DNA from: an uncultured Planctomycetales bacterium
GTDB lineage: Bacteria; Planctomycetota; Phycisphaerae; UBA1845; PWPN01
Reading direction: 5' to 3'
Assembly: GCA_964586235.1 (NCBI GenBank)
Contig: CAZPIO010000008.1
Location: 19,893-83,892, forward strand
DNA length: 64,000 nt
Part shown: positions 21,639 to 44,285 of the stretch, in pieces
Layout: each line of letters begins with the position of its first letter
How positions within the stretch are numbered: position 1 is the stretch's first letter
The notes under the pieces: generated by a model
Database searches by the model: none
What the model was told of the DNA's origin: nothing
What the model saw: the letters and a program-made list of their open reading frames with translations, nothing else
Position numbers and translations under genes: made by a program

Positions 21639-23090
21639 TCAACCCGTCGGGCTGCCGCGCGGCCCGGTGCGAGCACCGGCACCGACAGGAACGATCCGCT
21701 GGTCCACGTAAATCACCTTGCCACGCGGGGACAGAGAAATCGAATCGACGAGCTGTATATCGGCTTGCAGGCGGCCGTCGAGCTTGCGGCCAAGGTTCTG
21801 GCGGATCCGCTCACGGCTGTGGCGGTCAAAACCGTTGCCAGGGACGATTCGCAGGACTGCCCGGCCCGGCGTGTCCTGGTAGAACTGGAACTGCCGGACG
21901 TTGAGGAACGTGTCATCGTGCATGTTCATCGCGGTCCATGAGATCTCCGAGCCGTCCGACGCGATCAGCATCTCCTGAGTTCGATGACCGCGGATATCGC
22001 GGATAATCGCATGCTGCCGGCCGCAGGCCTCGCAGCGGTCGCCGGCCCATGTCGCGTAGTCGCCCGTGCGGTACCGGATGAAGGGCACCACGGTGTTGAT
22101 GAATCCGGTGCCGACGATTTCCCCCTGCTGACCAGGCGCCGTGACGGGTCGGCCCTGCTCGTCCAACAGCTCGAAGCAGCCGTACGTGGGCCAGACGTGA
22201 TAGTCCGTCGAGTGCTCGCATTCGGCGGCCAGGACGAGCTTCTCGGTATGACCGTAGCATGAGAAGAACCGACAACTGAACACTTCCTCGACCATCGCCC
22301 GTTGCTCGGGGTACACGATTTCCGATTCCGCGATGATCCCACGGACGTTGCGCGGCGGAGTCAACCCGGAGCGATGACAGAATTTCGCCAACGCGAACGC
22401 TGACGACGGGTACACGTGCAGAAAGCACGGGCCGATCGTGGCGACATGCTCAAGGTACCGTCGCATGTTCTCATCGGTCATGTGGAAGTTGCTGTAGTAG
22501 TGATGCCGCAGGATCGGGTCGTACTGATGCCGCAAGCCGTCTTGATTTTCCCGAACCACGCGTCCTCGGAAGACGGCCAAGGGGCACCCCACCGTGTAAC
22601 CGCACCGCTGCCAACTGCCCGTGAGATGGGCGTATTCGACAGCCGAGCGATCCGCGTTGAAGTAGAAGTGCAGGGGAACGCCTCCCGTACCTCCCGTGGA
22701 CACGTAATCGACGCTGCCCGCGTTAGGCGAAGTCGCGCACATCTCAGCCAGATGATCCCGAACGGTATCCTTGTCGATCGTTGGCAGATGAGACAGATCC
22801 TCGGGCCCTGTCAGATCACCCGGGCGGAAGCCCACGCTGTCAAAGAGGTGACGATAGTAGGCCGTCTTCTCGTATGCCAGGCGACAGATGCGCCGGAGTT
22901 GCACCAGTTGATATGTCCGTGACTGCTCCGCGGACCACCACTGGGCGGAATCCACAAACCGACAGTTGGCCCGAAACCGGGATCCCAGCCAATAGCGGCT
23001 CGGGACCAGCCCCAACACACGGCCAAACCGCTCCTTAACTGGGTCGGGGAGCTTCTCCCACAGGTTCTTACGTGATAATGCCCGCTTCAT
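21639..23090 (-). CDS. Adenylate-forming enzyme, phenylacetate-CoA ligase/CapK (COG1541, F390-synthetase-like) family
   Basis: 'VSTGGTGGVPLHFY' (P-loop-like), 'YRTGDYATW' (adenylation core), plus the overall length and layout of CapK-type proteins in capsule loci. The ATG at 23090 overlaps the stop of the upstream DUF362 gene by 23 nt. Confidence 0.75.
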   Translation of the reverse strand: MKRALSRKNLWEKLPDPVKERFGRVLGLVPSRYWLGSRFRANCRFVDSAQWWSAEQSRTYQLVQLRRICRLAYEKTAYYRHLFDSVGFRPGDLTGPEDLSHLPTIDKDTVRDHLAEMCATSPNAGSVDYVSTGGTGGVPLHFYFNADRSAVEYAHLTGSWQRCGYTVGCPLAVFRGRVVRENQDGLRHQYDPILRHHYYSNFHMTDENMRRYLEHVATIGPCFLHVYPSSAFALAKFCHRSGLTPPRNVRGIIAESEIVYPEQRAMVEEVFSCRFFSCYGHTEKLVLAAECEHSTDYHVWPTYGCFELLDEQGRPVTAPGQQGEIVGTGFINTVVPFIRYRTGDYATWAGDRCEACGRQHAIIRDIRGHRTQEMLIASDGSEISWTAMNMHDDTFLNVRQFQFYQDTPGRAVLRIVPGNGFDRHSRERIRQNLGRKLDGRLQADIQLVDSISLSPRGKVIYVDQRIVPVGAGARTGPRGSPTG

Positions 23091-24570
23091 TATCTGTCTC
23101 GGCAGCCTCGATCCGCCCTTCCCATCCGAAGTGCGGCTTGAAGGCGGCAGATGACCCGTTGACATCGACGAGGTTCCCGGAGAATCGGGCATCGTTGGAC
23201 CGCGCTTCAATATCCGCAAATCCGGGCAGGCCGGACAGCAACGGATGCCTCGCGGTTGCCCTGGAAAGAACCGGCAGTCGGCGAGGGTCAAAGCCCATCA
23301 GCCGGGCGCAAGCCACATCCACCGTCACCGGATTGAAGCCGGCCACCACCACTCCCGCCGGCTTTGGCGTCGGATCCAGCGGCCCGTTTCCTTCGCCGCC
23401 AATGATCCCGTCCACGACACTGAAGAATTGCCGGGCCGGCCGATCGCCAAGCCTGCCCTGGCTGTCCGCGTAGAGCAGGATGCGGTTGAGGTCGAGCACC
23501 ATCCGCCAGGTCGTGTCGTTGCCATACCAGTTGCCGGAACGGATCGTGCCGTTGTTGGTGTCCCCGAATACGCGTTTCCCCAGCGACTTCGCGGGCTTCG
23601 CAACCGCCGAGCGTAAGGGGCCCAGCAGCGGGAAGACCCGTCTGAAGCCGGTCATCAAGCCCCGCTCCATGCGATGGAGCAGCCCGTCGTCGGCAAACTG
23701 GTCGCCGCCCTGCGACGGCGTTCCCTCACGATGATGAGGCAGCCAGTTCTTGTTGCCGTTGATGCCGACGAGGTTCTTCAGGTTAACGGTAATGCCGGTT
23801 TTCTTGTGGGTCTTGAGCTTGGGGAGGCTGATCACGACATCGGCGTCCAGAACCGTCTTCGAGATCAGGTACTCGTGAACGTCGTCATGGTGGTGGCGGC
23901 GGATCTCGCTCGTATCGTACTCCGAGCCGTACAGCCGATGGCAGAGATGGTTGATTTCGGCAAACTCGGAATCCAGACCGAGGTTCACTCTGACATAGCC
24001 GGCCGGGTCGCCCGGAAGCGGCTCATGGCCGACGATGACGCCGTCAATCTTGCGGGCCCGCTCGGGACGCAGGTCGTAGACCTCGACCTCAAAGCCCGCG
24101 TGGCGGCGGTAGAAGTCCTGGATCTCTTGCAGGCCGGCGATGCGTGCGATGGCCTCGAAATCCGCGTCGTTGTGAGGGGCGTCGGCGATGATGATCCGGC
24201 CGCAGCCCTCCAAGGCAAGGTAGGCATAATCCAACACCGCTCGGATCACGGAACCGTGGGTGATCAGGCAGTCGCCGTGGCCCGGCCGCGTCTCCCGGAA
24301 CTCGCGCACGAAGTTGGGCTTCAAAACGACCGTGTCCCCCCGCTTGATGATGCCTTGGAGGGGATTCCATCCCGCCGAGAGGCTCCGGTCCGCGTCCAGT
24401 TCCAGCAGTTGCAGAGCCTGCCGGACCGCGGCGTATGCGGCGTTCGGACCGGGCGAGCGCGGCCCGCCCCTGAAAGGATACTCCGGGTAGCATTCCTGCG
24501 GCGAATAAGGGGGCGATTGCGGATAAGCACCATGCCCCGCGGAAATCGCAACGGATCGCGACGTCAACAT
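23068..24570 (-). CDS. DUF362 domain-containing protein
   Basis: 'IKRGDTVVLKPNFV' and 'CLITHGSVIRAVLDY' match the DUF362 core pattern. I chose the ATG at 24570, which avoids overlap with the upstream GT4 gene. Confidence 0.7.
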   Translation of the reverse strand: MLTSRSVAISAGHGAYPQSPPYSPQECYPEYPFRGGPRSPGPNAAYAAVRQALQLLELDADRSLSAGWNPLQGIIKRGDTVVLKPNFVREFRETRPGHGDCLITHGSVIRAVLDYAYLALEGCGRIIIADAPHNDADFEAIARIAGLQEIQDFYRRHAGFEVEVYDLRPERARKIDGVIVGHEPLPGDPAGYVRVNLGLDSEFAEINHLCHRLYGSEYDTSEIRRHHHDDVHEYLISKTVLDADVVISLPKLKTHKKTGITVNLKNLVGINGNKNWLPHHREGTPSQGGDQFADDGLLHRMERGLMTGFRRVFPLLGPLRSAVAKPAKSLGKRVFGDTNNGTIRSGNWYGNDTTWRMVLDLNRILLYADSQGRLGDRPARQFFSVVDGIIGGEGNGPLDPTPKPAGVVVAGFNPVTVDVACARLMGFDPRRLPVLSRATARHPLLSGLPGFADIEARSNDARFSGNLVDVNGSSAAFKPHFGWEGRIEAAETDNEAGIIT

Positions 24571-24575
24571 GGGAT

Positions 24576-25826
24576 TCACCGCCGGCTTTCCTTCTCGCGC
24601 CCCGCGGGGTAAGCGGACCGGATCGCCTCGCCTATGCAGCAGCGCCACCGCTCCGCGATCGCCTCAATACTGCAGCGTCCGGCAGCCTGGGCCGCCGCCC
24701 GCGAGAACTGCCGCCATCGCTCCTCGCTGCTCAAGAGCGAGAGGATGTGATCGCAATAACCGCCAATGCGGTTGGGTTGCACCAGAAATCCGCTCGTGCC
24801 GTGGGTGACCAGTTCTCCCAGTTCGCCAACATCGGCGACAACAGGCACCGCGCCCGCCGCCATGGCCTCGAGCATCGCGATCGAGAGCCCCTCGGATCTG
24901 GACGTGAGGACAAACACCTTCGACTGCGCCAGGATCGTGCAGACGTCGGATCGCCTGCCGAGAAAACTGATCTGCTGTGTCACGCCCGCCTGAACGGCCT
25001 GGATCTGGAGGAGCGGCAGGAGAGGTCCCTCTCCGACCATCACCGCCCGCACTCCGGGAGCCGACTGCTTCACAGCCGCGACTGTCTCAACGAACTGGTC
25101 AGGCTGTTTGATCGGCGCCATCCGTCCGACGAAGGCAAGGTCGTAGCAGCGATCACCGTTGCCGCCGGCCACGTCGCCAACGCTGCCCGTGATAATGTGG
25201 ACGGAAGCCGCGATGTGATGGGCAAGGAGAAAATCCTGCGCCTTGTGACCGCGCACCACGACCGTGTTGAATTCGCCGATGACCGCGATCGCCAGACGCT
25301 CAAGAAACGGGCGAGGCCGGCCCAGGTTGGCCGTCAGCCAGCTCTCACTGGCAAAACCGCCGCCAACGATCTCGAGCGGTCCGCCGGTCATCTGATAGCA
25401 GGTTGCGCTGCCGACCAGCTTGCCGACGATGAGAGCCGAGAGGCCGGCGGGGATGATGTGATAGCCCATGATCACATCGGGGGCAAACCGTACGCCGGCG
25501 ATGAAGGTCCAGATGAACTTGGCGAACGCCCTGCTGACCAGGCGCGAGAGCCATCGCGGGGGACAGAAAAAGCGGACGCGAGCGATCGGGGATTGAGGCT
25601 CGTCCACCACCAGAATCACTTCCTGCACGCCGCTGCGAGCCAGGGGAACTATGTGTGATTGATACCAGCCGGGATTGTGGAAGGTCCCGGTAACCAGAAC
25701 GCGTCCGGACGGCTTCCTGCGAAATCGGGGCAGAATCCGCGACAGGCGAGCAACGGCGAGAGCGATGCCGAAGGCGGACGCCAGGAGGAGATACGTGGAC
25801 GCAAAACGCAGTCTGGCCGCGATCAT
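24576..25826 (-). CDS. Glycosyltransferase family 4 (GT-B, group 1)
   Basis: C-terminal donor-binding signature 'VFVLTSRSEGLSIAMLEAMAAGAVPVVADVGELGELVTHGTSGFLV' (E-x7-E type). Confidence 0.85.
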   Translation of the reverse strand: MIAARLRFASTYLLLASAFGIALAVARLSRILPRFRRKPSGRVLVTGTFHNPGWYQSHIVPLARSGVQEVILVVDEPQSPIARVRFFCPPRWLSRLVSRAFAKFIWTFIAGVRFAPDVIMGYHIIPAGLSALIVGKLVGSATCYQMTGGPLEIVGGGFASESWLTANLGRPRPFLERLAIAVIGEFNTVVVRGHKAQDFLLAHHIAASVHIITGSVGDVAGGNGDRCYDLAFVGRMAPIKQPDQFVETVAAVKQSAPGVRAVMVGEGPLLPLLQIQAVQAGVTQQISFLGRRSDVCTILAQSKVFVLTSRSEGLSIAMLEAMAAGAVPVVADVGELGELVTHGTSGFLVQPNRIGGYCDHILSLLSSEERWRQFSRAAAQAAGRCSIEAIAERWRCCIGEAIRSAYPAGREKESRR

Positions 25827-25922
25827 TGTGGAGGTCGCCGCAGTGCTTGTGTCCGTGCTGGCTGCAAAAACGTATCGGTACCGACGCAGCCAGCACCTTT
25901 CGAATCACCCGGCCCCAGGAAC

Positions 25923-27140
25923 TCAATCATCACCGGCGGATCTCCGGGGCTTGTGGCCGTTCCTGTGAAGCAGATCCAGGTAGACCGCTTCCGTTTTCCG
26001 GGCCAGTGCCGCCGTGGAGAACTGTCTTGTTACCCATTCTCTCGCGTTCCGGCCGGTTGTCCGGCAGAATTCAGAATCGCCCAGCAGTTGGCAGACGCGA
26101 TCCGTCAATGCGTCGACATCTCCGAGAGCTACGATAAACCCTGTCTGCCCGTTCGGGACGATTGCGGCGTTGTCCGCGACATCCGTTGCCACCACGGGCA
26201 CGCCGCAAGCCATGGACTCGAGGAGCACGTTGGGGGTTCCCTCGCGGACGGAAGACAGCACGGTCACGTCGCACGCGTTATAGACAGCGGGCATGTCATG
26301 GCGGTTGCCGAGCAGGTGAAACCTCCCGGCGATACCGAGCGAATCGAGCAGGCATCGCATCTCGCGATGGTAGTCCGCCGCGCCCTGCTGGTTGTCACGC
26401 AGCGGCTCGCCCACACACAAGAACCACGTGTCACGGAATCTCTTGAGCACTTCGCGGGCCATCCGGAAGAAATCGCCGTGATTCTTCTGCCGCTTGAAAT
26501 GGGCCACCATGCCCACCACGTGATCTTCCGAGCGAATCCCCAGCTCGCGCCGAACCGTATCGCCGCCGCCCGGCGTGAATCGCCGGACGTCGACGCCGTT
26601 GTGTATCACGTGGATCCGATGGGCGGGGATGCCCAGCGTCCGGATGTTGAATCGCTTGCCCGCGGTGGAATTCGCGATCATGGCATGAAAGAATGGCCGC
26701 GTGAGCCGCAGGCACGCCTCCTCCACCAGCGACAAACGGTAGTCGGTGTTTCGCTCGGATGCGATCACGACAGACACACCCGCCATGCGGGCGGCAAGGC
26801 GGGCCACGATCTCGGCATCGTGCAGGAATGCATGCACCACCTGGATTCTGCGCTCCCGCATCACCCGCGCCGCCCGCAGGACCGTGGTCGCATCGAACTT
26901 CCAGCGTTTTTCCACGATGACCAGCTCCCGGGCGGGGTCGGGCAGCGCGTCGGCCAGCGGAACCTCAGCCGACAGCGAGCACACGACCGGCGCGAAGCGT
27001 GAACGATCGATCTCGCGCATCAGTTCCACGACCTGTCGCTCGGCCCCGCCGCACTCCAGGCTGCTGACCAGGAGCATCACCGGGATGGGGCCTTGATGAT
27101 CCGAACGCGTCTTGTTGATCGTGGAAACCATCCTTGACAC
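25923..27140 (-). CDS. Glycosyltransferase family 4 (GT-B, group 1)
   Basis: 'GGAERQVVEL' N-terminal motif and 'VTVLSSVREGTPNVLLESMACGVPVVATDVADNAAIVPNGQTGFIV'. Start is either the GTG at 27140 or the ATG at 27131. Confidence 0.85.
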   Translation of the reverse strand: MSRMVSTINKTRSDHQGPIPVMLLVSSLECGGAERQVVELMREIDRSRFAPVVCSLSAEVPLADALPDPARELVIVEKRWKFDATTVLRAARVMRERRIQVVHAFLHDAEIVARLAARMAGVSVVIASERNTDYRLSLVEEACLRLTRPFFHAMIANSTAGKRFNIRTLGIPAHRIHVIHNGVDVRRFTPGGGDTVRRELGIRSEDHVVGMVAHFKRQKNHGDFFRMAREVLKRFRDTWFLCVGEPLRDNQQGAADYHREMRCLLDSLGIAGRFHLLGNRHDMPAVYNACDVTVLSSVREGTPNVLLESMACGVPVVATDVADNAAIVPNGQTGFIVALGDVDALTDRVCQLLGDSEFCRTTGRNAREWVTRQFSTAALARKTEAVYLDLLHRNGHKPRRSAGDD

Positions 27141-27149
27141 CCGACCGCC

Positions 27150-29009
27150 TCAGACGTTGAACGCCCGGCACCAGTGCTCGAACATCAGCAGCGACCATAT
27201 CTTGCGGCTGAAGTCGCGCATGCCCATGCCGTGCCCCCGAATGATGTCGGCGATTGCGTCGCGGGCCAGGTAGCGGGTGCATCTGCTGTTCGGAGACAGA
27301 AGAAGATCCATCGCGTAAGGCTGCAACTCATTGCGGAACCAGTGCTTGATCGGTATGCCGAAGCCCATTTTCCGGCGACCAAGAGTCTCCGAGGGAACGT
27401 GCGGCGCCAGCAATCGTTTGAGCAGATACTTCCCGCTGTTGTTCCGCATCTTCAGGTTGACGGGCATTGAATTGACAAGTTCGACAACGTGATGATCGAG
27501 GAGCGGAACGCGCACCTCCAGCGAATTCCGCATCGACATGCGGTCCACCTTGACCAGGATGTCATCGGGCAGGTAATTCTTCTGGTCGACATGCTGGCGG
27601 AGCGACACTTCGTCCCTTCCGTTGGCCTCCGCAAACTGCCGTTCAAAGCATCGGGCGGTTCTGGAGGCTACGTCGGCCCCGTGCCCGGCGAGTAAGGTTC
27701 GTCGGTCCGCGAGGGTGAACTCGCTCATCTCCGCCTGGTACCGCCCGAGACGGTCGTACCCGAATCGTTCCACCATCCCCCGGCCCCACAGGGTCTGCGG
27801 CATGACGGTCAACAGCAGCGTGCTGAGAACCTGCCGGGGCCGCAAGGGCACACCGTCCAGGCACCGGCGGAGACGTCCCTCTCGATAACGCGTGTAGCCC
27901 GCGAACGTTTCGTCCCCCCCGTCTCCGGACAGGCACACTGTCACGTGCCGTCTGGCCTCCCGGCAGATGTAGTAGGTGGGCAGCGACGAAGGATCACCGA
28001 AAGGCTCATCCAGATAGTAGGCCAGATCACTCAGCACGGAGATATCATCGTCCCGGACCGTGATTTCGTGGTGATCCGTGTGATAGCGCCCCGCCATCAG
28101 CCGGGCGTACCGCAGTTCGTCGAAGTCCGGCTCGTCGAACCCCACGGAGAACGTCTTAACGGGCGCGCCCAGTTCCTGGCTGGCCAGGGCAACTACCGCG
28201 CTCGAATCGATCCCACCGCTGAGAAAGATCCCCAGCGGCACGTCGGCCCGCAGACGGAGCCGGACCGCCTCCCGAAGGACCGCCTCCACCCGCTCTGCCC
28301 ACTCTTGCTCATCGCTGACGGTCTCGTCGACCCGGAAGTCCACATCCCAGTACTGCGTCATGGAAACGCGGCCGTTCTTCCACCGCATCCAGTGCCCTGG
28401 CGGCAGCTTCTCGATGCCCGTGAATATGGATCGATCCGTGGGCACGCACGTGTATGTGAGGTAATCATCCACGGCACCGATGTTGAGTTCTCGCGGGACG
28501 GCGGGGTCCTCGAGAATCGCCTTCAACTCGCTGGCGAAGACAAGTCGCCCGTCCCGAAGATGATAGAAGAGCGGTTTCTTGCCGAGACGGTCGCGAGCGA
28601 TGAAGACCGACTGGTCCCGGCCGTCCCAGACCGCCAGTGCACACATCCCCATGAAATGCTCGAGGCAGCCGGAACCGTACTGCTCGTATGCATGCACGAT
28701 CACCTCTGTGTCTGATTCCGTGCGGAATACGTGACCGAGCCGCTCCAGAGTCGTACGCAGTTCGCGATAGTTGTATATCTCCCCGTTCAGGACGACACCG
28801 ATCGAGCCGTCTTCGCTGTAAATCGGCTGGTCGCCCGTTTGCAGATCGATGATGCTCAAACGCCGGTGCCCCAGCCCGACGTTCCGCTTGACCAGGTATC
28901 CTTCGCCGTCCGGGCCACGATGGATCAGCCGCCGGGTCGCGCGCCGAAGCAGGTCTTCGTCGACTCGGCCAAGCGGATCGGCCTCGCATATGCCCACGAT
29001 GCCGCACAT
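27150..29009 (-). CDS. asnB: Asparagine synthase (glutamine-hydrolysing)-type amidotransferase, EPS/exosortase-system associated
   Basis: N-terminal nucleophile 'MCGIVGI', PP-loop 'FLSGGIDSSAVVA', full 619-aa length. Embedded between glycosyltransferases. Confidence 0.9.
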   Translation of the reverse strand: MCGIVGICEADPLGRVDEDLLRRATRRLIHRGPDGEGYLVKRNVGLGHRRLSIIDLQTGDQPIYSEDGSIGVVLNGEIYNYRELRTTLERLGHVFRTESDTEVIVHAYEQYGSGCLEHFMGMCALAVWDGRDQSVFIARDRLGKKPLFYHLRDGRLVFASELKAILEDPAVPRELNIGAVDDYLTYTCVPTDRSIFTGIEKLPPGHWMRWKNGRVSMTQYWDVDFRVDETVSDEQEWAERVEAVLREAVRLRLRADVPLGIFLSGGIDSSAVVALASQELGAPVKTFSVGFDEPDFDELRYARLMAGRYHTDHHEITVRDDDISVLSDLAYYLDEPFGDPSSLPTYYICREARRHVTVCLSGDGGDETFAGYTRYREGRLRRCLDGVPLRPRQVLSTLLLTVMPQTLWGRGMVERFGYDRLGRYQAEMSEFTLADRRTLLAGHGADVASRTARCFERQFAEANGRDEVSLRQHVDQKNYLPDDILVKVDRMSMRNSLEVRVPLLDHHVVELVNSMPVNLKMRNNSGKYLLKRLLAPHVPSETLGRRKMGFGIPIKHWFRNELQPYAMDLLLSPNSRCTRYLARDAIADIIRGHGMGMRDFSRKIWSLLMFEHWCRAFNV

Positions 29010-29028
29010 CAGATCACGTCCGATCGAA

Positions 29029-30249: not shown

Positions 30250-30282
30250 GAACCCTCTCCTCGCCGGTCATCGTTCGCGGGA

Positions 30283-31887: not shown

Positions 31888-31926
31888 GGGAGAAGAGAGG
31901 CTGATTGCCGGTCGCTGTTTACATCG

Positions 31927-32919: not shown

Positions 32920-32953
32920 GGGGAGAGTCAGCGACCCACACAAGCAGCGATAC

Positions 32954-36012: not shown

Positions 36013-36021
36013 GGGCGATGG

Positions 36022-38391
36022 TCAACTGGCGGCGTCGACGGTCTCCTCGGTGTTTTCGTAACCGTATCCATAGCCGTAGCCGTAACCGTAGCCGTAGCCA
36101 CCGAGGCCATGGTGGCCGCCAACAAGGATCGTCCCCAGGAGTGTGCCCCCCGAGGCGCTCAGATAAGCGTACGCCTGGGTGGCCTCAGGCCGGCGGCAGT
36201 GCCGGGCTTTCAGGACCATCACTGTCCCGTCCACCTGCCGGGCAAGCATCCCGGCATCGGCCACCACCAGGACCGGCGGCCCATCGAGAAGAATCAGGTC
36301 ATATTGTTGTTTCCATCTCTTCAGACATTTCGACAGAACACCGTTTCCGAGCGATTCCGTGTTGAAACCCTCGGGCCTCTCGCCGGCCAGGAGCAGGTCG
36401 AGCCCGCTGGCCTCGTCGTGGACGATCGGATCGCCACTATGAGCCAGACCGGCCAGCAGGGTAACCAGCCCCTTGTCCTGCTCGAGGCCGAGCCGCCGGC
36501 CCAGACACGGACGTCGCAGATCAACCTCGACCAGAAGAACCTTCTTCCCAAGCTGCACGACGCTTCTGGCCAGCAAAACCGAGACGCTGGTCTTTCCCGT
36601 TTGCGGAGTCGGGCTGGTCACCAGGATCACCGGAGCCTGCATGCCCTGCAGGTGCTCCAGCAGGGTCGTGCGGATCATGCGGATGCTCTCCAGCAGCGCG
36701 GCGGGAGAGTTGGCGATCGGGTCAACCGGGAATGGCGATTGGCACACCTGCCCAAGGAACGGCACCCGAAGGCTCTTGGTCACGTCGCCGGCCTCACGGA
36801 TGGTCGTGTCTGCATTTCCTCGCAGATAGGCGAGGGCTATCCCGGCCAATAATCCCCCGACAACCGCCCCAACGGTCATGAGTATCCGCCGGTCGTTGCT
36901 GGGTTCCGCGGGCAGCAGACCGTGGGAAGCGATCTGGATCCGGGCCGGTCCCTTGCCTTCGACCTGCAGTTCCTCGATTCGGGCCGCGATGGCCCCGCTG
37001 ACTTCGACGTTCTTGCTGGTTTTCGCGTCGAGGTCGGCTATCTGCCGGGAGACTTCGCCGACCTCCTTCAGCTCGGCCCGTACTTTCTTGATATCCTCAT
37101 CGAGCAGCTTCAGCTTCTGCTCATGCTCCTGCGCGAGGACCTCAAGAGCAGCCTGGTCGGGTGTCCCCGCCAGGCCCGGGGTCCCGGCCGATCCGGCGAT
37201 CCTTGCCGCCTGCTGGTCCGCGCGGAGTTGTTCCTCCCGCTCCTGCCTGAGCTGTTCCACGAACCGCAGTTGAGCCTGGAGCTCCTTCATTCTCGGATGG
37301 GCTTCCGCCAGTTTCTCGGCGGCGCGCTCAATCTCATAGCGGGCCCTTTTGACTTCCAGGTTGCGAGCCCTCCAGTCGGCGTCGTACACGTACCAGCCGG
37401 CGGAGGACCCGGCCGGGGCCGTCGCGGTCGCCGGATCCGCCGTGACGGCGGCCGGCTGACTGGCGGCAGATGACAACCTGCCAAGCTGCCACCGGACGAC
37501 GTTGAGACTCCGCTCCACCTCGCCGAATTCGAACTCCAGCTTCCGCAGGTCCGTGCCAAGCTGGGCCCGGCGCTGTTCCGAATCGACGGCACCCATCTGC
37601 CTGAGGAACAGGAATTTCTGGTCCCTGAGACCGGCGATCATCCGCTCGCGGTCATTCCGCTCGGCCTTCAGGGTCTCAATCAGCGTGGAGTCGCGATTCC
37701 TCTCCTGGCTGTCACTGATGGTCTGATACTCGTCTACCACGGCATCAACGATGATCTGCGCGTCAGAGGCCTTCAGTGTGCTGATGGACACGTCGATCAG
37801 TTCCGTTTGGGGCCGCACCTGAACCTTGAGGTCGTCCCTCAGCCGGTTCAGACGCGGTACGGGGTCGCCCCAGAGCGAGCGCCGTTCCGCCTTGTACCAG
37901 TCGGTCTTCTGGACGTCGCTGCGGTCGAGCACGCGTTCGAGAACGCGCGGATCGCGAATCAATGAGACCTGCGTGTTCAGGAAGCTCTGATACAGCGGCA
38001 CGATCCCGTTGTCTTCGGTCTTGAACACGATCCGGGAAACCACCGGCGACACCCGAACGACCGCCGTCGACTGGTAGGTCGGTTTGATGAAAACCCATAT
38101 CGGCGGAATGGCAAGGACGCAAACCGCCAGGCATATGCCGCCGATCAACCACTTCTGCCGGAGCAGCATCGGGGCGATGGATCGGCTCGCGGGCGCCCGC
38201 TCTCCGGACGGGGAGTTGAGAAGCAGGCTGCCGCCCTCCTGCTCCGGCTGAGGCGGCATTTCAGGCTCGTGTGCCGGCGTGAGCGGCGCGAGAGGGCCGC
38301 CGGAACCCACGATCGTCGATTCGCTGTTGTCGGAAGGCATTGAAATATACTCCTGGTCTCGTTTTACCCTCGGCAGTTCGTCACTTGTCAT
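36022..38391 (-). CDS. Polysaccharide co-polymerase fused to bacterial tyrosine (BY) kinase (Wzc/GumC-like)
   Basis: Wzz-type N-terminal TM plus a long coiled-coil periplasmic region and a second TM. Kinase motifs are Walker A 'TSPTPQTGKTSVS', A' 'VLLVEVDLRRP' and B 'DLILLDGPPVL'. The C-terminal Tyr cluster is 'GGYGYGYGYGYGYGYEN'. ATGA overlap with the stop of the upstream GT26 gene. Confidence 0.9.
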   Translation of the reverse strand: MTSDELPRVKRDQEYISMPSDNSESTIVGSGGPLAPLTPAHEPEMPPQPEQEGGSLLLNSPSGERAPASRSIAPMLLRQKWLIGGICLAVCVLAIPPIWVFIKPTYQSTAVVRVSPVVSRIVFKTEDNGIVPLYQSFLNTQVSLIRDPRVLERVLDRSDVQKTDWYKAERRSLWGDPVPRLNRLRDDLKVQVRPQTELIDVSISTLKASDAQIIVDAVVDEYQTISDSQERNRDSTLIETLKAERNDRERMIAGLRDQKFLFLRQMGAVDSEQRRAQLGTDLRKLEFEFGEVERSLNVVRWQLGRLSSAASQPAAVTADPATATAPAGSSAGWYVYDADWRARNLEVKRARYEIERAAEKLAEAHPRMKELQAQLRFVEQLRQEREEQLRADQQAARIAGSAGTPGLAGTPDQAALEVLAQEHEQKLKLLDEDIKKVRAELKEVGEVSRQIADLDAKTSKNVEVSGAIAARIEELQVEGKGPARIQIASHGLLPAEPSNDRRILMTVGAVVGGLLAGIALAYLRGNADTTIREAGDVTKSLRVPFLGQVCQSPFPVDPIANSPAALLESIRMIRTTLLEHLQGMQAPVILVTSPTPQTGKTSVSVLLARSVVQLGKKVLLVEVDLRRPCLGRRLGLEQDKGLVTLLAGLAHSGDPIVHDEASGLDLLLAGERPEGFNTESLGNGVLSKCLKRWKQQYDLILLDGPPVLVVADAGMLARQVDGTVMVLKARHCRRPEATQAYAYLSASGGTLLGTILVGGHHGLGGYGYGYGYGYGYGYENTEETVDAAS
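36058..36099 (-). repeat. Hexanucleotide (TAC-GGN)x7 microsatellite encoding the (YG)7 tail of the BY-kinase
   Basis: Plus-strand 'gta acc gta tcc ata gcc gta gcc gta acc gta gcc gta gcc', read directly. Confidence 0.9.
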
Positions 38392-39149
38392 TGTGCCGGC
38401 TGCCGCAACCTTGACTTGAGAACATCGAACACGAACAACGGCAGCACCGCTTGTCTGGCCAATCTTCCGGGCTGAACCATCAGGCGATACAGGAACTCCG
38501 TTCCCGTTCGTCGGAAGAGGCGCGGTGCCCGCCGGGCTTTTCCACTGAGGACGTCAAAACTCCCACCTACCCCCATGCAGAAGGGCACGGCGAGAACCGC
38601 CCGATTCCTGGCGATCCAGTACTCCTGCCTCGGAGAACCGAGCGCCACAAAGAGCAGGTCGGCCTTGCTGTTGTTGATCCTGTCAACCAGGCCGGCATCG
38701 TCCGGCTGATAGCCATGTTCAGCACCTGCGATCCGCAGGGTCGGATACCTGTCGACGAGCGCCGCACGAGCACCCTCGTTGGATTCGGGCGAAGCGCCGT
38801 AGAGAAAAATGGACCAGCTTTCGACGGACGCGGCACGGGCCAGCTCCAGGAAAAAATCGACGCCCGTGCAGCGCCGAAGCCTGTGCCCATAGAGCACCCG
38901 CGCGGCGATCGCGACGCCGATACCGTCGCATATCCCAACCTCGAATCCGTTCAACGCGGAGCGCAAGGCCGGGTCGCGCGTCGCATGCATGATCTTCTCG
39001 GGGTTGATGGCCACGGCGCATCTCCGCGAACGCTCCCGGATACCCCCGGCGACGCAGTCAACGGCCTCCTGATACGAGGCAAAGGGCGTGACGGAAACAC
39101 CCATGATCCGCAGGGGCTGGGGCAGAGAATTGGACTGGGCCACGCTCAT
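38388..39149 (-). CDS. WecB/TagA/CpsF-family glycosyltransferase (GT26)
   Basis: 'AINPEKIMHA', 'ICDGIGVAIAAR', 'LLFVALGSPRQEYW' and 'MGVGGSFDVLSGKARRAP' are characteristic GT26 blocks. The ATG at 39149 has an AAGGAG SD. Confidence 0.85.
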   Translation of the reverse strand: MSVAQSNSLPQPLRIMGVSVTPFASYQEAVDCVAGGIRERSRRCAVAINPEKIMHATRDPALRSALNGFEVGICDGIGVAIAARVLYGHRLRRCTGVDFFLELARAASVESWSIFLYGASPESNEGARAALVDRYPTLRIAGAEHGYQPDDAGLVDRINNSKADLLFVALGSPRQEYWIARNRAVLAVPFCMGVGGSFDVLSGKARRAPRLFRRTGTEFLYRLMVQPGRLARQAVLPLFVFDVLKSRLRQPAQ

Positions 39150-39197
39150 CGCTCCTTTCAAAGTGACGGGGTCAGTCGCGCAAGGCTGGTTCGCGGA

Positions 39198-40778
39198 TCA
39201 CGTCGGCTGGCGCAGCGGCCAGGAGGGTGGAGTTTCCTTTTCATTCCGTCGCCGCCGGCTCTCAACGCGAACCCCGTTGTGCCCGAGCGGGCGCAGCCTG
39301 GAGTGTGCCGGACCACCGCCGGACACCGGGACGTCAACATCAGGAGGCATGGCGAATTCGTCGATGAGACGGTTGAAGAGGGTCACTCGCCGTCCCGCCG
39401 ACTCAAGAGAACCGTTCTGCTTGACCGTGGCCTCGATCTGGAGCGGGCAGGACCTGGGGCTGTGGTTAAGGGGCACCACGATACGCATGCCGACGGGCGT
39501 CGCTCCGTTACGCTCCGTGCAGCGCCAGGTCCGTATGCGGCGGTCCGGATGGCCCCGGCTCCTGGTCAGCGATATTTCGACAAACGCAAGCCCCTCGGCA
39601 GCCCTGCACACCGCCCCCCACCACGCCTCAAAAGACACCGCCTCACGCAACAGGAGCTGCATCATCTCGAATCGCCGTTTCTCTTCCTTCCTCTCGCTGG
39701 CCATCGTGAAGTTGCGCCGGGCCACCGCCAGGCTGTCGCCAAGCCTCACCGCTCCAAAAAAGCGGAATGCGAAGAGCAGGAAACATATCGCGACCCCGAA
39801 AATCAGCAGCGTCAGCCTGTCATGAACGATCATCATCAGCATGCCGGTACCGGTTGCCGCCAGAGTCACTCCGTACAGGACCAGCACGGCCTGCCGATGG
39901 GCAAGACCGCGCTCCAGGAGCCTGTGGTGTATGTGACGGCGATCGGGCGCGAACAAGGACCTGCGCTCCAGAACTCGCCGCAGCATGCTGAAGAGAGTGT
40001 CGAACAGGGGAACGCCCAGGGCGATCAGCGGAAGGCCCAGGCCGGCCACGGTGGCGTACTTCGCGCCTGAAAGCATACTGCAGCCCGCGACGGCAAAGCC
40101 CAGGAAGAGGCTTCCGCAGTCGCCCAGGAAAATCCTGGCCGGGTTGAAATTGAAGACCAGAAAGCCGATCAGGCTTCCCAGAAACGCAAGCATGAATACG
40201 GATGCGATAGGCAGCGATGCATGTATGGAGATCATTGCGATGACGCCGCAGGCGACCGCGGAGATGCCGGCAGCCAGGCCGTCGAGGCCGTCGATGAGGT
40301 TGACCGCGTTGGTGATCGCCGTCACCCATAGGATCGTGGCGAACAGCGAAAACCATCCGAGATCGATGACCAGGTTCTCGGTCAGGCCGATGGAGTCGAT
40401 TCGCGTACCCGACAGGTAGAGGATCACGGCGGCAACCACCTGCGCAAGCAGCTTGTGACGGGCCCTAAGGCCGACAACATCATCGACAAGCCCGACCGCG
40501 AAAATGAACAAGCCCGCCCCCAGCAGCGCGAAGACCTGCAGTTGCAGGGCATTAAAAGCGTTTCCGACGGGGTTCTGCAGAAGGAGGACGGGGAGCGTGG
40601 CGGCTGTGACCGCGATGAGTATCACCAGACCGCCGAGACGAGGAATTTCTGATCGATGGACCTTGCGCGGGCCCGGTTTGTCCACCACGCGTGTTCGTCG
40701 GGCAAACCGAATGACCAGTGGCGTAGCCAGCATCGACACGATCATCGCTATGAGGAAAACAACAGTGTAGGTTTTCAT
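39198..40778 (-). CDS. Polyprenyl-phosphate HexNAc-1-phosphate transferase (MraY/WecA family) with ~180-aa C-terminal extension
   Basis: 'VVDKPGPRKVHRSEIPRLGGL', 'NAVNLIDGLDGLA' and 'GDCGSLFLGF' are WecA/MraY family motifs. The protein is 526 aa, against ~350-370 aa for typical WecA. The tail after the last TM helix has no motif I recognise. Confidence 0.85.
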   Translation of the reverse strand: MKTYTVVFLIAMIVSMLATPLVIRFARRTRVVDKPGPRKVHRSEIPRLGGLVILIAVTAATLPVLLLQNPVGNAFNALQLQVFALLGAGLFIFAVGLVDDVVGLRARHKLLAQVVAAVILYLSGTRIDSIGLTENLVIDLGWFSLFATILWVTAITNAVNLIDGLDGLAAGISAVACGVIAMISIHASLPIASVFMLAFLGSLIGFLVFNFNPARIFLGDCGSLFLGFAVAGCSMLSGAKYATVAGLGLPLIALGVPLFDTLFSMLRRVLERRSLFAPDRRHIHHRLLERGLAHRQAVLVLYGVTLAATGTGMLMMIVHDRLTLLIFGVAICFLLFAFRFFGAVRLGDSLAVARRNFTMASERKEEKRRFEMMQLLLREAVSFEAWWGAVCRAAEGLAFVEISLTRSRGHPDRRIRTWRCTERNGATPVGMRIVVPLNHSPRSCPLQIEATVKQNGSLESAGRRVTLFNRLIDEFAMPPDVDVPVSGGGPAHSRLRPLGHNGVRVESRRRRNEKETPPSWPLRQPT

Positions 40779-41045
40779 GGCTGCAGATCCATTCTGAAAT
40801 AGACGGCGGTCGTAGTCGGCTCAAGAAGCTGAAAGCGGGCGGTCCCCGGCAGACTTGCCCGGCATGTCGTGATCGCGGTTCAGGGTCTGGTGATGGGGAA
40901 GCATGCAGCGGCCTTCTGCCCAGGCGCCTCGGGAGGCCTCACCCTCCCCACCAGACCCCCAGCCGTACGTGCGCTGTGGTCAGCGATCCGGACGATCCTG
41001 TCGCACACGCTTATCCCGGACCGGCCGGCCCGGTGTGCTGTTACC

Positions 41046-43124
41046 TCATACAAGCTGGCTCTGGCCGTGCATGCCTCGGCTGCGCAGGGCCGGTCGCCGG
41101 ACGGGATCACTGAAAGCGATCACGCTTCGCAGAGCAGTGTTGCCGTCGACCGTGCATCGTGCGACAAGCGTTACGGTCGGAGTCTTCCTGTGGTATCCGT
41201 CACTCACCCACCCCCCGATGGGCGCCTCGCTCCCTTCCAGCGTGTGAATCACCAGCCGCTCATCGAGTTCGAAGATCAACTGTCCGGCGCCCGTGTCCAC
41301 GGCGAACCTGTTCGCTTCGTGCTCGAGGACGCGGCATTGCGGGGCGAGGTGGAAGAACAGCTTCACCTCATGTTGCCCGGCCGTGATGAGCTCATCGAGG
41401 ACCGACAGGCTGCGGGCGGCGCCGTCCAGTTCCAGCCGGCGCCTGTGAATCACCGGCGACTTGAGACGCGTGTAGCCGTCATGCTCGCCGACGACCGTCC
41501 CCCCGTTAGCGCTGACCTCAAAGTGCAGACACCGGGCCCGAGCCCGTGCACCCCACAAGAAACGCCCGGCCATGACAGATTGATCGCAGTCATCGACCAG
41601 AAGCGTATTGTGAGCTCTGGTGCTCCGGAAATACTCCCGCCAGGCCGGAAAGCGGAAGTAGTCATACGTTCCGGGGTCCACCAGCACCGGCGTGCCGGAC
41701 AGGCGCAAGGTGAAGCTCAGCGCGTCGGCATGGCCGTGACCGGCCAGGGGCGGCAGTCCAAGCTCGCCACAGTCAAAAACGACGCTCATACAGCCGTCGC
41801 GGCCTGCTTGCCCATGCTGCAGCACGTAATACCCGGTTTGTGGAAAGCCCTTGCTGGACAGCCGGCCATCCCATGCCCTTTTGTCGTCGTACACAAGCCG
41901 TTCATATGCCTCCCGGCCGAGCGACCACAGGACCGATTCACCGGATCTGGACGCCAACGCCCTGAAATCGCTGCGATCCCACAAGGCTGCTCCTACCGCC
42001 AGCAGGCTTCGAACGCGGTCACCGCCTTCTCCGAGATCCAGCACGTACCCATCGTCACAGTCGCCGAGCATCGGCGGCCCGTCACCACCTTCGGTCAGCG
42101 CGGCCAGGAAACCGAACATCCTCCCCAGCCGTTCCCAATAAGATGGCGGGAAATCGCAGCCGCAGTTCCGAGCCGCCAGTCCTGCCACCAGAAAGAACTC
42201 GAGTACAAACAGGTGGTACCCCATTGACAACTCGCGGTGGCCGCCGTCCTCGTGCGTTTGCGTCTGCATTTCTCGCAGCAGAATCGCGCGGGCCTCCTGC
42301 CTCCAGGCATGCGCCCCACGAAAGCCGGAGAAGTAACAACTGCCTACGAACACGCCGGCCGCTTCGCCGACCAGATGGTTGCCTACGGAGGAATAGCGCG
42401 AGTACTTCCTGGATATCTCCCACAGATGACGATACACCGCTGTCAGCAGCCTGGCCTGGAAATCGTCGCTGAGCCGCAGCGCCGGCCGAATCAGCTCCAG
42501 TGCCCAGACCCAGTTGATCAGGCGAATGGCCAGCTCCAAGGGGCTTCGCCAGTTCATCCCGCGACCAAACGGGCATTGTTGCAGCCAGCTCTCCAGGTGC
42601 TCAATGACCTTGTGAGCGTAAGTCGGGTTGCCGGTGAGCCGGTAGGCGCGGCCCAGTACCACCAGGTGCTGATGCCGGTTGAGCTCCCACACCAGCTTGG
42701 CATCTCCGGTCAAAGCGTAGTCACGATAGTCGATCGCCGCGGCAGACCCGAGCGGAGTCGGTTGCTGAGCCTCATACTCGTAGTTCCAGTTCAGGGGACG
42801 CTGCCCTGGCACATCCAGGATGCTGAGGAAACGCAGGTGATTCCCGCAGATCGTGTCAGCCCGCGCGATCAGAGCGGCACGCCACCCGTCGGCTCCCGGC
42901 AAATCCTTCAGTTGTTCTGACGACGGGAGCTGTCTCAGCACGTCTGGGCATGTGGGATCTCCATTACAGCCGGCCGTTGTAAGACGTCCAGGGGAGATCG
43001 GCCTGGCCCGCAACCACAGCAGACACCGGTCTGTCCAAGCCTGGATCGCAGCCCCGGCGCGCCAGCAGACCTCCGCGGGCGACATGAACCTGAGCCGGCG
43101 AGCGTACCACTGCAAAGACTGCAT
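41046..43124 (-). CDS. Heparinase II/III-family protein (alginate-lyase-like N-domain plus Hepar_II_III C-domain)
   Basis: 'NWRSPLELAIRLINWVWAL', 'VGNHLVGEAAG' and 'GHGHADALSFTL' are family hallmarks. The ATG at 43124 has a GGGAGGA SD. Confidence 0.85.
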   Translation of the reverse strand: MQSLQWYARRLRFMSPAEVCWRAGAAIQAWTDRCLLWLRARPISPGRLTTAGCNGDPTCPDVLRQLPSSEQLKDLPGADGWRAALIARADTICGNHLRFLSILDVPGQRPLNWNYEYEAQQPTPLGSAAAIDYRDYALTGDAKLVWELNRHQHLVVLGRAYRLTGNPTYAHKVIEHLESWLQQCPFGRGMNWRSPLELAIRLINWVWALELIRPALRLSDDFQARLLTAVYRHLWEISRKYSRYSSVGNHLVGEAAGVFVGSCYFSGFRGAHAWRQEARAILLREMQTQTHEDGGHRELSMGYHLFVLEFFLVAGLAARNCGCDFPPSYWERLGRMFGFLAALTEGGDGPPMLGDCDDGYVLDLGEGGDRVRSLLAVGAALWDRSDFRALASRSGESVLWSLGREAYERLVYDDKRAWDGRLSSKGFPQTGYYVLQHGQAGRDGCMSVVFDCGELGLPPLAGHGHADALSFTLRLSGTPVLVDPGTYDYFRFPAWREYFRSTRAHNTLLVDDCDQSVMAGRFLWGARARARCLHFEVSANGGTVVGEHDGYTRLKSPVIHRRRLELDGAARSLSVLDELITAGQHEVKLFFHLAPQCRVLEHEANRFAVDTGAGQLIFELDERLVIHTLEGSEAPIGGWVSDGYHRKTPTVTLVARCTVDGNTALRSVIAFSDPVRRPALRSRGMHGQSQLV

Positions 43125-43134
43125 CGATCCTCCC

Positions 43135-43521
43135 TCAACTCACCAGTTCCAGCCCTGCATCGGGGTCCAGGTCGGTGAAGGACTTCGGCTGAACCGGCAC
43201 GAAGGGGAATTCGGTCTCTACCCGGGACCAGTCGATCCGAGTGCCCTTCGACAAGCTCTCGGTCAGAATCTTCTGGACCTCCGGCCAGACACCCGCGAGC
43301 TGCCAGTCACGCAGACGGCGAAGACAGGTCATGCCGCAACCGCAGCCTAACTCGGCCGGCAGGTCGCCCCACGCAATCCCCGTCCGCAAAACAAAAACAA
43401 TCCCGGTCAGCGCTTGCCGGTCCGAAAGCGCCGGCCTGCCCCCCTTCGGCCGTCGCCGGCGAACAGGCAGCCTTTCCTTGACCAATTCCCAGACTCGGTC
43501 GGGCAACACTTGTGTAGGCAT
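43135..43521 (-). mobile_element. IS5/IS1182-group transposase N-terminal fragment (DUF4096 region only); IS remnant/pseudogene
   Basis: 'GRPALSDRQALTGIVFVLRTGIAWGDLPAELGCGCGMTCLRRLRDWQLAGVWPEV...IDWSR' matches the N-terminal HTH/DUF4096 part of IS5-family transposases. No DDE domain follows: the frame runs into the SD of the next gene. I did not identify any inverted repeats. Confidence 0.7.
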
Positions 43522-43688
43522 GAGGTCTATCCTTGCGATCAGCTAAACGTGTCCATCGAGCGGCAATTACGTGAAGTGCCTTGCAGCGGTGTGTGGTCTT
43601 CAGACGGGTCCGTCTGGACTCCGTCCCCGTCGACTAAGCTCATTCTTGGCCGTAACCGCTTGGGAAGAAGTGAGTTATGGCCTTTCTG

Positions 43689-44285
43689 CTAGTCGATTGC
43701 TTCAAGCATGGCAGGGTCGATTTCGAGCTCCGCCGACTGGCCAAGCGTCTCGACCCCTACATAGATCCGGCACGAACCGCGTCGCCGGAGCACAACGCCC
43801 TCCAGGCCCGCCAGACTCCCTCGCACGATCCGGCAGCGCCGGCCGCGACACAGGTGTGGATACAGGTCCACTGATTCGCTGCTGGTGGTGACGAGGTACA
43901 CATGACGGAGTTCCGTTCTCAGTTGCCCCTGGTCCACCACGTTGATGACGGCCGCCGCCCGATGCGTGAGTAACGTCGCATACCGTTCGTCGTCGCCGCC
44001 GCACATGAAGAGGTAACCAGGAAAGAGCGGTATCTCGGTTAATGAAACGTGGCCGGCGTGCTTCCGCCGCGTTCGAACCAGCGGAAGAAAGTAACCGATT
44101 CTCATGGCGGTCAGGTCGCCAGCCAATGCTTTCTCATTGCGTGACTTGGTGTGAACCAGCCACCATCGTCCGTCGTATATGTCGACCGGGCAAGCCGCAG
44201 GACCGTCGAGCATGCGGATCCGACCCGCCATCGCCGGTGCCGCCTCCGTCTGACTGCTCGCTGCTCGACCATCCATCGCCATCAC
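43689..44285 (-). CDS. NusG-paralog transcription antiterminator (RfaH/UpxY-like), first gene of the EPS operon
   Basis: NGN domain 'WWLVHTKSRNEKALAGDL...IPLFPGYLFM' and KOW motif 'GRRCRIVRGSLAGLEGVV'. Positioned at the head of a ~22-kb co-directional polysaccharide gene train. The start could be an internal ATG (e.g. 44213). Confidence 0.8.
   Translation of the reverse strand: MMAMDGRAASSQTEAAPAMAGRIRMLDGPAACPVDIYDGRWWLVHTKSRNEKALAGDLTAMRIGYFLPLVRTRRKHAGHVSLTEIPLFPGYLFMCGGDDERYATLLTHRAAAVINVVDQGQLRTELRHVYLVTTSSESVDLYPHLCRGRRCRIVRGSLAGLEGVVLRRRGSCRIYVGVETLGQSAELEIDPAMLEAID

Follow-up and report, generated by a model that had tools for sequence, protein, structure and literature searches.

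What signal does a NusG paralog read when it is encoded at the head of a long train of polysaccharide genes, and where in the locus does that signal lie? The question was raised by a 64-kb stretch of DNA from an uncultured Planctomycetales bacterium of the Phycisphaerae (contig CAZPIO010000008.1; hereafter the window, whose numbering is used throughout, with ATG taken as the start codon wherever available). In this window, 16 co-directional minus-strand open reading frames (ORFs), running from 44231/44285 to 21639, are headed by the gene of a 180-aa specialised NusG paralog (NusG_SP; 43689-44231, minus strand). To our knowledge, recruitment sites of specialised NusG proteins are known only for RfaH (ops), for Bacteroides UpxY (opsX) and for LoaP (an RNA hairpin). 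NusG paralogs adjoining polysaccharide genes are a known theme, and for many of those found beside such genes in other phyla the recruitment site is unknown (PMC7593976, PMC7819879). Here we describe a conserved non-coding element of about 87 nt (43604-43690, minus strand), which begins at the stop codon of the paralog gene. It is the best candidate for an ops-like recruitment or pause site of the paralog, and probably the place at which the paralog boards RNA polymerase. New in this system are the Planctomycetota family itself, a defined candidate site with orphan copies, and a partner gene derived from a transposase.

The paralog was assigned to a family by hidden Markov model scores, which stand in for a phylogeny with reference RfaH, UpxY, LoaP and TaA sequences. 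Residues 40-117 of the 198-aa ORF matched the NGN domain (Pfam NusG PF02357, 36.1 bits against a cut-off of 22.2). The best NCBIfam model was UpxY (NF033644, 73.7 bits against a cut-off of 100), followed by two models of RfaH (TIGR01955, 53.7 against 144.5; NF006534, 31.4 against 124) and by LoaP (NF033641, 32 against 125), while no NCBIfam model of housekeeping NusG matched at E<=0.01. A search of the PDB with the family profile likewise returned the LoaP-type 8f5g as its best match together with RfaH/PrfaH chains, and no housekeeping NusG chain at E<=0.01; the NusG-RNA complex in 8f5g we take to be that of LoaP. No separate Pfam KOW match was reported for the ORF. An AlphaFold2 (AF2) model built from 84 homologs, with a predicted local distance difference test score of 85.8, comprised an NGN domain (22-97), a helix (101-116) and a beta-barrel KOW domain (132-179) with strands at 132-135, 144-151, 153-160, 165-171 and 176-179. 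Foldseek matched this model to NusG, RfaH, Spt5 and 8f5g, with full-length alignments to NusG and RfaH chains. The Pfam match, the fold and the Foldseek matches together bear out a preliminary description of the window, which had placed a protein with NGN and KOW domains at the head of the train. The same description had let the train start at 44285; this is the GTG reached by the longest ORF, while the protein catalogued in public data (P0001), exactly the 180-aa paralog, begins at the ATG at 44231. A search yielded 398 homologs, the closest of them in metagenome-assembled genomes (MAGs) of Phycisphaerae. The most conserved segment, VHT[KR][SA]RxEKA, presumably lies in the part of the NGN domain that touches ops DNA in RfaH. 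The KOW domain is strongly basic and very arginine-rich, as counted from the translation; arginine-rich KOW domains are also found in LoaP and in class-2 UpxY.

A genome scan with one genome per species returned 75 paralog loci (numbered with the prefix L below), in the high-GC ones of which genes were taken from catalogued gene calls together with a choice based on GC at third codon positions. Thirty-five of these loci formed a close group with paralogs 54-83% identical to that of the window. In MAGs of Phycisphaerae, the genes of these relatives are the first of trains for polysaccharides, exosortase or Wza. Several kinds of train stand behind the paralog: heparinase-WecA-WecG-Wzc, as in the window; GMPPB/NTP-transferase-Bac_transf-rmlCABD, followed by GT2 or by exosortase and EpsI; and a train in which a Wza-like export gene comes after the paralog. 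At a few loci an opposite-strand gene follows instead. Five MAGs each carry two copies of the paralog, and in two of them both copies lie on one contig, of 2.4 Mb (L013/L024) and of 4.6 Mb (L018/L026), where they head two different kinds of train. Paralogs of one genome are 58-71% identical, and in both large-contig genomes a copy resembles its counterpart at the same kind of locus slightly more than it does the second copy of its own genome. This multi-copy, locus-linked pattern is the one known from Bacteroides UpxY. The idea of a locus-specific paralog, put forward in the preliminary description, is thus supported by the comparison of genomes, in which members of the family consistently come first in trains of polysaccharide, exosortase or Wza genes. 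That the protein is a specialised and not a housekeeping NusG is equally upheld, by the absence of any match to a housekeeping model, by neighbours that are polysaccharide genes and a Zn-peptidase gene instead of secE or rplK, and by the two copies in five related MAGs. On these sequence comparisons, it is very unlikely that the paralog is the sole housekeeping NusG of its genome.

The recruitment site had been expected in the leader ahead of the paralog gene, where an alignment of related loci might reveal an ops-like motif. Upstream of the paralog this expectation failed, as no 9-mer was common to more than 4 of 25 upstream regions and conserved islands were common to the nearest relatives only. 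The conserved element was found on the other side of the gene, by a sensitive blastn search with the 167-nt spacer behind the paralog, followed by alignment of the sequence after paralog stop codons. Its parts, in order, are a box A, a hairpin that covaries and a core that is invariant, GACGGGGACGGAGTC. Box A (43668-43678, minus strand; ATAACTCACTT) has the consensus rTAAsnnnTTg, in which the TAA is invariant or nearly so among 24 sequences. The hairpin (43633-43657, minus strand; GGTTACr...yGTAGyC, with a loop of roughly 8-12 nt) follows 10 nt after box A in the window, and this spacing is fixed across the family: of 45 sequences, 44 have neither insertions nor deletions in the stretch that joins box A to GGTTAC. 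The core (43616-43632, minus strand; CGACGGGGACGGAGTCC), the columns of which are invariant or at least 90% conserved, is able to form a mini-hairpin, GGAC-GGA-GTCC. Its exact 12-mer, GGGGACGGAGTC, occurs a single time in the window. In our own alignment the core could be set in register with the E. coli ops sequence GGCGGTAGCGTG, with G1, G2, G4, G8, G10 and T11 in common.

The hairpin was supported by covariation. RNAalifold, applied to an unbiased MAFFT alignment, predicted seven pairs, three of them with compensatory changes, such as A-U to G-C (13:7 sequences) or the alternation of G-C, C-G and A-U at the closing pair. In the covariance-model alignment of 45 sequences, which was itself fitted to the structure, 88.9% of hairpin cells were paired (82.6+-0.8 in shuffles), and the covariation score of 0.355 (0.241 in shuffles) was reached in 0 of 500 shuffles, while slid registers scored no higher than 0.111. 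The fold is strand-specific, because U-G pairs are frequent. A scan of mutual information detected no extra covarying pairs and no pseudoknot with box A.

A covariance model of the element (R1) matched the window element with 72.8 bits, and no second copy was found in the window even with filters off (next best, 11.8 bits). Besides the window, 24 of the 35 close-group loci carry the element at 38.9-73.9 bits, one per locus, on the strand of the paralog and starting 0-90 nt past its stop codon. L026 is one of them, though it was outside the R1 seed alignment. At L067, where the paralog is only 37-38% identical, a weak copy was found in the same place (20.8 bits, at a rough E of ~0.01). The start codon of the next gene follows 26-95 nt past the element in most loci. 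A heparinase-like gene comes after the element in L004, L011, L012, L018, L024, L029, L032 and L070, and also in L083, L095 and L100. Rfam, which includes a JUMPstart model, gave no match in the whole window at gathering scores, nor in 43000-45900 at E<=5. Core-like matches some 930-950 nt upstream of six paralogs that are 38-44% identical (L039, L048, L050, L052, L062 and L076) were rejected as coincidental, because in our reading of the flanking sequence they lie inside a conserved coding sequence, probably of an aminotransferase (PGDEV...), and do not match the full model.

Copies of the element were also found away from any paralog. A scan of metagenomes with the pattern GGTTAC-N14-26-GAMGGGGACGGAGTC returned 28 loci, of which 22 matched the full model with 33.6-63 bits; box A was present in these copies though absent from the search pattern. 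Five or six of the 28 did not fit the full model and were taken as chance matches. Nineteen of the 22 had at least 700 nt of upstream sequence. The paralog was directly upstream in 4 of them and absent from that position in 15, and in these 15 orphan loci no NusG-like ORF was present anywhere in the retrieved DNA. The orphans precede genes for UDP-GlcNAc 2-epimerase, GDP-mannose 4,6-dehydratase, NAD-epimerase or NTP-transferase; others precede a methyltransferase gene with a Wzx-like ORF, an AMP-ligase gene with AsnB, or a heparinase-like gene. Often they follow EpsI or AsnB on the same strand, and at one of them (L094) the next start codon is 183 nt away. Judged by these neighbours, the element marks the polysaccharide operons of these bacteria in general, in the manner of an ops/JUMPstart-type signal. 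Two orphans (L082, 4598-4685; L102, 8388-8475) were located between a response-regulator gene and a gene for a 4Fe-4S protein, a context not obviously related to polysaccharides; from a reading of its sequence, the regulator looks sigma-54-dependent and PrsR-like.

A subgroup of paralogs, 54-61% identical to that of the window, is devoid of the element. L022, L027, L034 and L077 stand before a Wza-like Poly_export/SLBB gene, and in L028, L030, L033 and L035 the next gene is on the opposite strand. Most members without the element cluster apart from the rest of the NusG_SP family. They may use another site, or may act in trans on orphan elements.

Directly behind the element in the window, the second gene of the train (43135-43521, minus strand, 128 aa) is separated from the paralog gene by 167 nt, and the heparinase-like gene starts 10 nt after it. 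Its only Pfam match was DUF4096 (74.9 bits), and the ORF covers positions 4-92 of the 258-position IS5 transposase model. Sixteen other loci have a homolog 109-416 nt behind the paralog gene. The gene is present in cis in only about half of the loci, and the element is equally conserved in those that lack it. The 16 closest database relatives comprise 15 proteins of 128 aa and one of 143 aa. None of the 17 DUF4096 ORFs from these loci is long enough for a DDE domain; terminal inverted repeats were not searched for. A median dN/dS (ratio of non-synonymous to synonymous substitution rates) of 0.24 was obtained for the first 100 codons. The AF2 model is all-alpha, and Foldseek against the PDB returned nothing significant for it (best E = 2.3). 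While the 128-aa protein shares its sequence family with the OrfA of IS5-family elements (IS1031/IS427-type), it differs from them in having no DDE domain nor room for one, in being single-copy and fixed in position behind the NusG paralog, and in being under purifying selection. For these reasons we consider that the ORF derives from the N-terminal (OrfA-type) domain of an IS5-family transposase and has been domesticated, and that it is not a mobile or decaying insertion sequence. Its product may bind DNA as a co-regulator or, going by position alone, may be an UpxZ-like modulator.

Taken together, we think it reasonably likely that the cis-encoded NusG_SP governs a long transcript by boarding RNA polymerase at the element. 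We infer that the polymerase pauses, that the paralog binds the element, that antitermination follows and that a single transcript covers the train, and the events could be envisaged as follows. RNA polymerase would leave the paralog gene, or start just behind it, and would then cross the element. There the elongation complex would be halted by the hairpin of the nascent RNA together with the G-rich core, whose GG-N8-GT spacing is like that of the consensus pause. The GGAC-GGA-GTCC mini-hairpin of the core could form on the non-template strand, and the paused complex would show a sequence-specific signal to be read by the NGN domain of the paralog, and possibly also by its basic KOW domain. 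The paralog would displace housekeeping NusG, and the complex would resist pausing, Rho and terminators over the ~22-kb train, in which two gaps of 267 and 96 nt and a terminator-like hairpin (25897-25877) are among the candidate obstacles. Orphan elements would recruit the factor in trans, all of them together forming a regulon. We regard as unlikely a more far-reaching version, in which the Planctomycetota possess an ops-type regulon of their own for cell-surface polysaccharides: one signal of ~75 nt (box A, hairpin and core) would mark many polysaccharide and exosortase operons and be read by several locus-encoded paralogs, with the DUF4096 product of the second gene as a DNA-binding specificity or antagonist factor. 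Were it true, an analogue of UpxZ would have evolved independently from a mobile element, and alternative polysaccharides could be expressed in a hierarchical, mutually exclusive manner.

The nearest parallels are found in Bacteroides, the UpxY and UpxZ proteins and capsular polysaccharide operons of which are reportedly the subject of work by Chatzidaki-Livanis from 2009 and 2010. As in that genus, a polysaccharide operon begins with the gene of a locus-encoded paralog and a small second gene follows, UpxY is the best-scoring model, and several paralogs occur per genome in the relatives, each at its own polysaccharide locus. In the opsX site of UpxY, an RNA hairpin precedes a short conserved stretch that can fold into a mini-hairpin on the non-template strand (Saba et al. 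2024, PMC11685472), and the element similarly presents a hairpin, then a site of ~12-15 nt with a mini-hairpin, tens of nt before the next start codon. In contrast to UpxY, however, the paralog scores below the family cut-off, as mentioned above, and belongs to the phylum Planctomycetota; the element comes after the paralog gene and not before it; the core is almost invariant instead of locus-specific; the second gene is the transposase-derived DUF4096, without a match to the UpxZ family; no invertible promoters were seen; and there are orphan elements without a paralog in cis.

With RfaH and its ops/JUMPstart signal the system has in common that one short element marks several polysaccharide leaders, the orphans suggesting action in trans. 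The 12-nt core can be aligned with ops at consensus-pause positions, in our reading of the two sequences, and some family members precede an opposite-strand gene, like the single-cistron rfaH. It differs from RfaH in scoring below the cut-offs, in a predicted C-terminal beta-barrel in place of an alpha-hairpin, and in the linkage of the paralog gene to its target. The E. coli ops sequence, GGCGGTAGnnTG, had no exact match in the window, and its six one-mismatch matches compare with 4.4+-1.9 expected by chance. One of these, GGCGGTTGCGTG (45546-45557, minus strand), is non-coding and lies 1.3 kb upstream of the paralog; it belongs to the class of chance frequency, and the region around it showed no blastn similarity to L004. 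LoaP recognises an element situated in a leader behind its own gene, which is where the candidate site stands here. The Bacillus velezensis system (LoaP and the leader hairpin of dfn/mln, PMC12691694) further resembles that of the window in a paralog beside its target cluster, an RNA hairpin in the signal and a basic KOW domain. The differences are a score of 32 against the cut-off of 125, loops of roughly 8-12 nt and not UNCG tetraloops, the extra invariant single-stranded core and box A, polysaccharide and not polyketide targets, and the absence here of an obvious intrinsic terminator after the element. By analogy, the system would thus work like UpxY/opsX and RfaH/ops yet is a member of neither family, because its scores are below the cut-offs, it has no UpxZ and no E. 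coli ops, and its site stands behind the regulator gene.

Several observations weigh against the element as the boarding site of the paralog. Eleven close homologs are without it (four before a Wza-like gene, four before an opposite-strand gene and three other or unresolved). The core is nearly invariant between paralogs of the same genome, so that locus specificity, if any, must arise elsewhere. The fixed spacing of box A and hairpin is more like that of a protein or duplex-DNA site, or of a promoter, than of an RNA feature. The window's own hairpin is imperfect, and the 171-nt element region of the window folds no better than shuffles (z = -0.96). The fit of the 45-sequence alignment to the structure, noted above, and the roughness of the E-values belong here also. 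The element is downstream of the paralog gene, whereas ops of Bacteroides is upstream of upxY, and the paralog's own transcription would consequently escape its own control. Finally, autoinhibition is what makes RfaH strictly ops-dependent, and the C-terminal domain of the AF2 model is a beta-barrel with no hint of an RfaH-style autoinhibited state, though one predicted state cannot exclude fold switching.

The element could alternatively be a promoter with the start of a 5' leader, box A serving as a -35-like and GGTTAC as a -10-like box for a sigma factor of an alternative or lineage-specific type. As a separate transcription unit upstream, the paralog gene would then be linked to the element only through conserved gene order. 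The invariant spacing of the two boxes speaks for such a promoter, as do the orphan copies at the heads of gene trains and the want of a convincing sigma-70 promoter elsewhere near the train. We nevertheless consider it unlikely. In our reading neither box is like the sigma-70, sigma-54 or common extracytoplasmic function (ECF) consensus. The 15-nt core, the most conserved part, lies 25-35 nt past the putative -10 box, where promoters are not conserved, and the stem covaries with U-G pairs, which is unexpected for duplex recognition. Moreover, many copies begin within ~30 nt of a co-directional stop codon (NusG_SP, EpsI), and they have no common upstream promoter DNA.

It is distinctly unlikely, in our view, that the element is an independent cis-regulatory RNA unconnected to the paralog, be it a riboswitch-like leader or a CsrA-type site at the GGA loop. 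Such an RNA would accord with the 15 of 19 pattern-selected copies that have no paralog upstream, with the 11 paralog loci that have no element, and with a structured, strand-specific hairpin and a GGA in the short stem-loop GGAC-GGA-GUCC. It would leave aside the identical position behind the paralog in 25 independent loci, one of them with a paralog only 37-38% identical. A single hairpin, with no multi-stem junction or more covarying pairs, is atypical of a ligand-binding RNA, and a distance of 26-183 nt from the next start codon, with the ribosome-binding site not overlapped, is atypical of CsrA-type control.

Improbable to a still greater degree is that the paralog is not a processive antiterminator and acts instead in pausing or silencing, or in coupling to translation or export, with several promoters for the train. 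Every characterised operon-linked NusG_SP (RfaH, UpxY, LoaP and TaA) activates its operon (PMC7819879), and the family is kept at the 5' end of long co-directional trains. Some UpxY proteins do boost pausing at their cognate site (PMC11685472), and such a role could also be read from the gaps of 267, 96 and 87 nt and the terminator-like hairpin within the train, and from the AF2 model, with no RfaH-like autoinhibited C-terminal domain. Very unlikely, too, is a reading in which the DUF4096 protein is the true regulator and recognises box A with the inverted repeat as its operator in duplex DNA. In its favour, the DUF4096 gene, which is under purifying selection, stands behind the element here and in 16 relatives of the locus, box A has a fixed spacing to the 5' arm of the repeat, and the ancestral OrfA domain of the IS5 family binds the terminal repeats of its insertion sequence. 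Against it, the element is as conserved without the gene in cis (for example in L009, L011, L017, L020, L032, L036, L070 and most orphans), stem changes preserve complementarity rather than sequence, and the invariant core is outside the repeat.

Recruitment by the element is a directly testable proposition, since the candidate site is specific, strongly conserved and easily synthesised, is described by a covariance model and is represented by at least 45 natural variants. The element could also be used as a marker of polysaccharide operons in Phycisphaerae MAGs. The locus further offers a case of a candidate site behind, and not before, its regulator gene, and a case in which domestication of a transposase domain is tied to a transcription elongation factor.

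The train itself marks the locus as one for polysaccharide biosynthesis of the Wzx/Wzy type in a member of the Phycisphaerae (Planctomycetota), and all of the following genes are on the minus strand. The first structural gene codes for a 692-aa heparinase II/III-like protein (41046-43124; Pfam Hepar_II_III_C, 190.6 bits, and Hepar_II_III_N, 116.3 bits). It is followed by a 526-aa initiating glycosyl-1-phosphate transferase of the WecA/MraY type (39198-40778; Pfam Glycos_transf_4, 136 bits; TIGR02380 WecA, 131 bits, below its cut-off), a WecG/TagA/CpsF glycosyltransferase (38388-39161; Pfam, 185 bits; TIGR00696, 152.7 bits against a cut-off of 69) and a 789-aa fusion of a Wzz-like chain-length determinant with a BY tyrosine autokinase, ending in a GYGYGY tail (36022-38391; TIGR01007, 102.7 bits; Pfam AAA_31 and Wzz). 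Pfam and NCBIfam matches identified a Wzy_C polymerase/ligase-like protein (34612-36012), a sulfotransferase (31927-32943), a Wzx-like flippase (30283-31887), an AsnB-type amidotransferase (27150-29009), three glycosyltransferases of family GT4 (GT4a, 29029-30249; GT4b, 25923-27140; GT4c, 24576-25826), a DUF362 protein (23068-24648) and a PaaK-like adenylating enzyme (21639-23090, or to 23291); a membrane protein (32954-34624) has no assigned family.

The preliminary description had counted 15 genes, apparently because it passed over the 128-aa ORF (43135-43521) that separates the heparinase-like gene from that of the NusG paralog. The three overlaps it listed are exact: the minus-strand ATGA at 38388-38391, where the WecG/TagA stop codon lies over the start of the Wzz-tyrosine kinase gene; the 23-nt overlap at 23068-23090, between an ATG at 23090 and the DUF362 stop codon TAA at 23068-23070; and the 13-nt overlap at 34612-34624, between an ATG at 34624 and the Wzy stop codon TAG at 34612-34614. 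Its statement that the genes are separated by short gaps or overlaps is right for these overlaps but not for all of the gaps, those between paralog and DUF4096 genes (167 nt), heparinase and WecA (267 nt), GT4b and GT4c (96 nt) and Wzx and GT4a (~87 nt) not being short. Continuity of a single transcript across the train is plausible from this arrangement. Scans for consensus promoters and terminators near the train gave only chance-level matches, and a sigma-70-like promoter at 45121-45093 (minus strand), of chance frequency and not kept in L004, was not used. No tRNA was found.

Four features of the train deserve a further remark. Inside the 96-nt gap between the GT4 genes, the terminator-like hairpin at 25877-25897 (minus strand) has nine pairs followed by GATACGTTTT, and is a candidate internal signal for a processive factor to override. 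Within the 267-nt non-coding gap (40779-41045, minus strand), ~40807-40879 is 73% identical to the matching gap of L004; the covariance model found no copy of the element there, and the gap could host an internal promoter. In the WecA/MraY-type transferase (39198-40778) the family match stops at about residue 340, and the C-terminal extension of ~190 aa matches no family. The Wzz-tyrosine kinase fusion (36022-38391) carries a C-terminal tyrosine cluster, GYGYGYGYGYGYGY, and such a cluster is the usual autophosphorylation tail of BY-kinases.

On the other side of the paralog, a block ~300 nt upstream of the gene (44519-44601, minus strand) contains two hairpins, GGGTTGGCCAGC...GCTGGCTAACCC, in which L029 shows a compensatory change, and ACGCGCAG...CTGCGC. 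It is kept only in L004 and L029, and ~75 nt past it (44415-44447, minus strand) there is a weak terminator-like hairpin with a T-run, which is also kept in L004. A small RNA or a structured leader could be encoded here.

The train had also been described as an exosortase-associated exopolysaccharide operon. Adjacency was confirmed and membership was not, as the exosortase (15487-16545, minus strand; Pfam Exosortase_EpsH, 196 bits) and EpsI/DUF3485 (16546-17358, minus strand; Pfam DUF3485, 83 bits) genes form a neighbouring unit outside the train, 4.3 kb past its end, with a convergent plus-strand gene (17758-21513) in between. No mention of exosortase together with NusG was found in the literature searched. 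Of the marker enzymes of the XrtA system, AsnB in the train scored 654.6 bits against the TIGR03108 cut-off of 816.9, and GT4b 187.8 bits against the stp2 cut-off of 409. A simple search of the window for PEP-CTERM tails gave no convincing one; a regex match in an 81-aa ORF within 17758-21513 looks spurious, and the protein encoded at 17758-21513 ends without such a tail. This 1251-aa protein, with PKD, He_PIG and beta-helix domains, is encoded in the stretch 6919-21513 along with a 1535-aa TPR protein. In the relatives L005, L015, L020, L021 and L081, exosortase and EpsI are part of the paralog-headed train itself.

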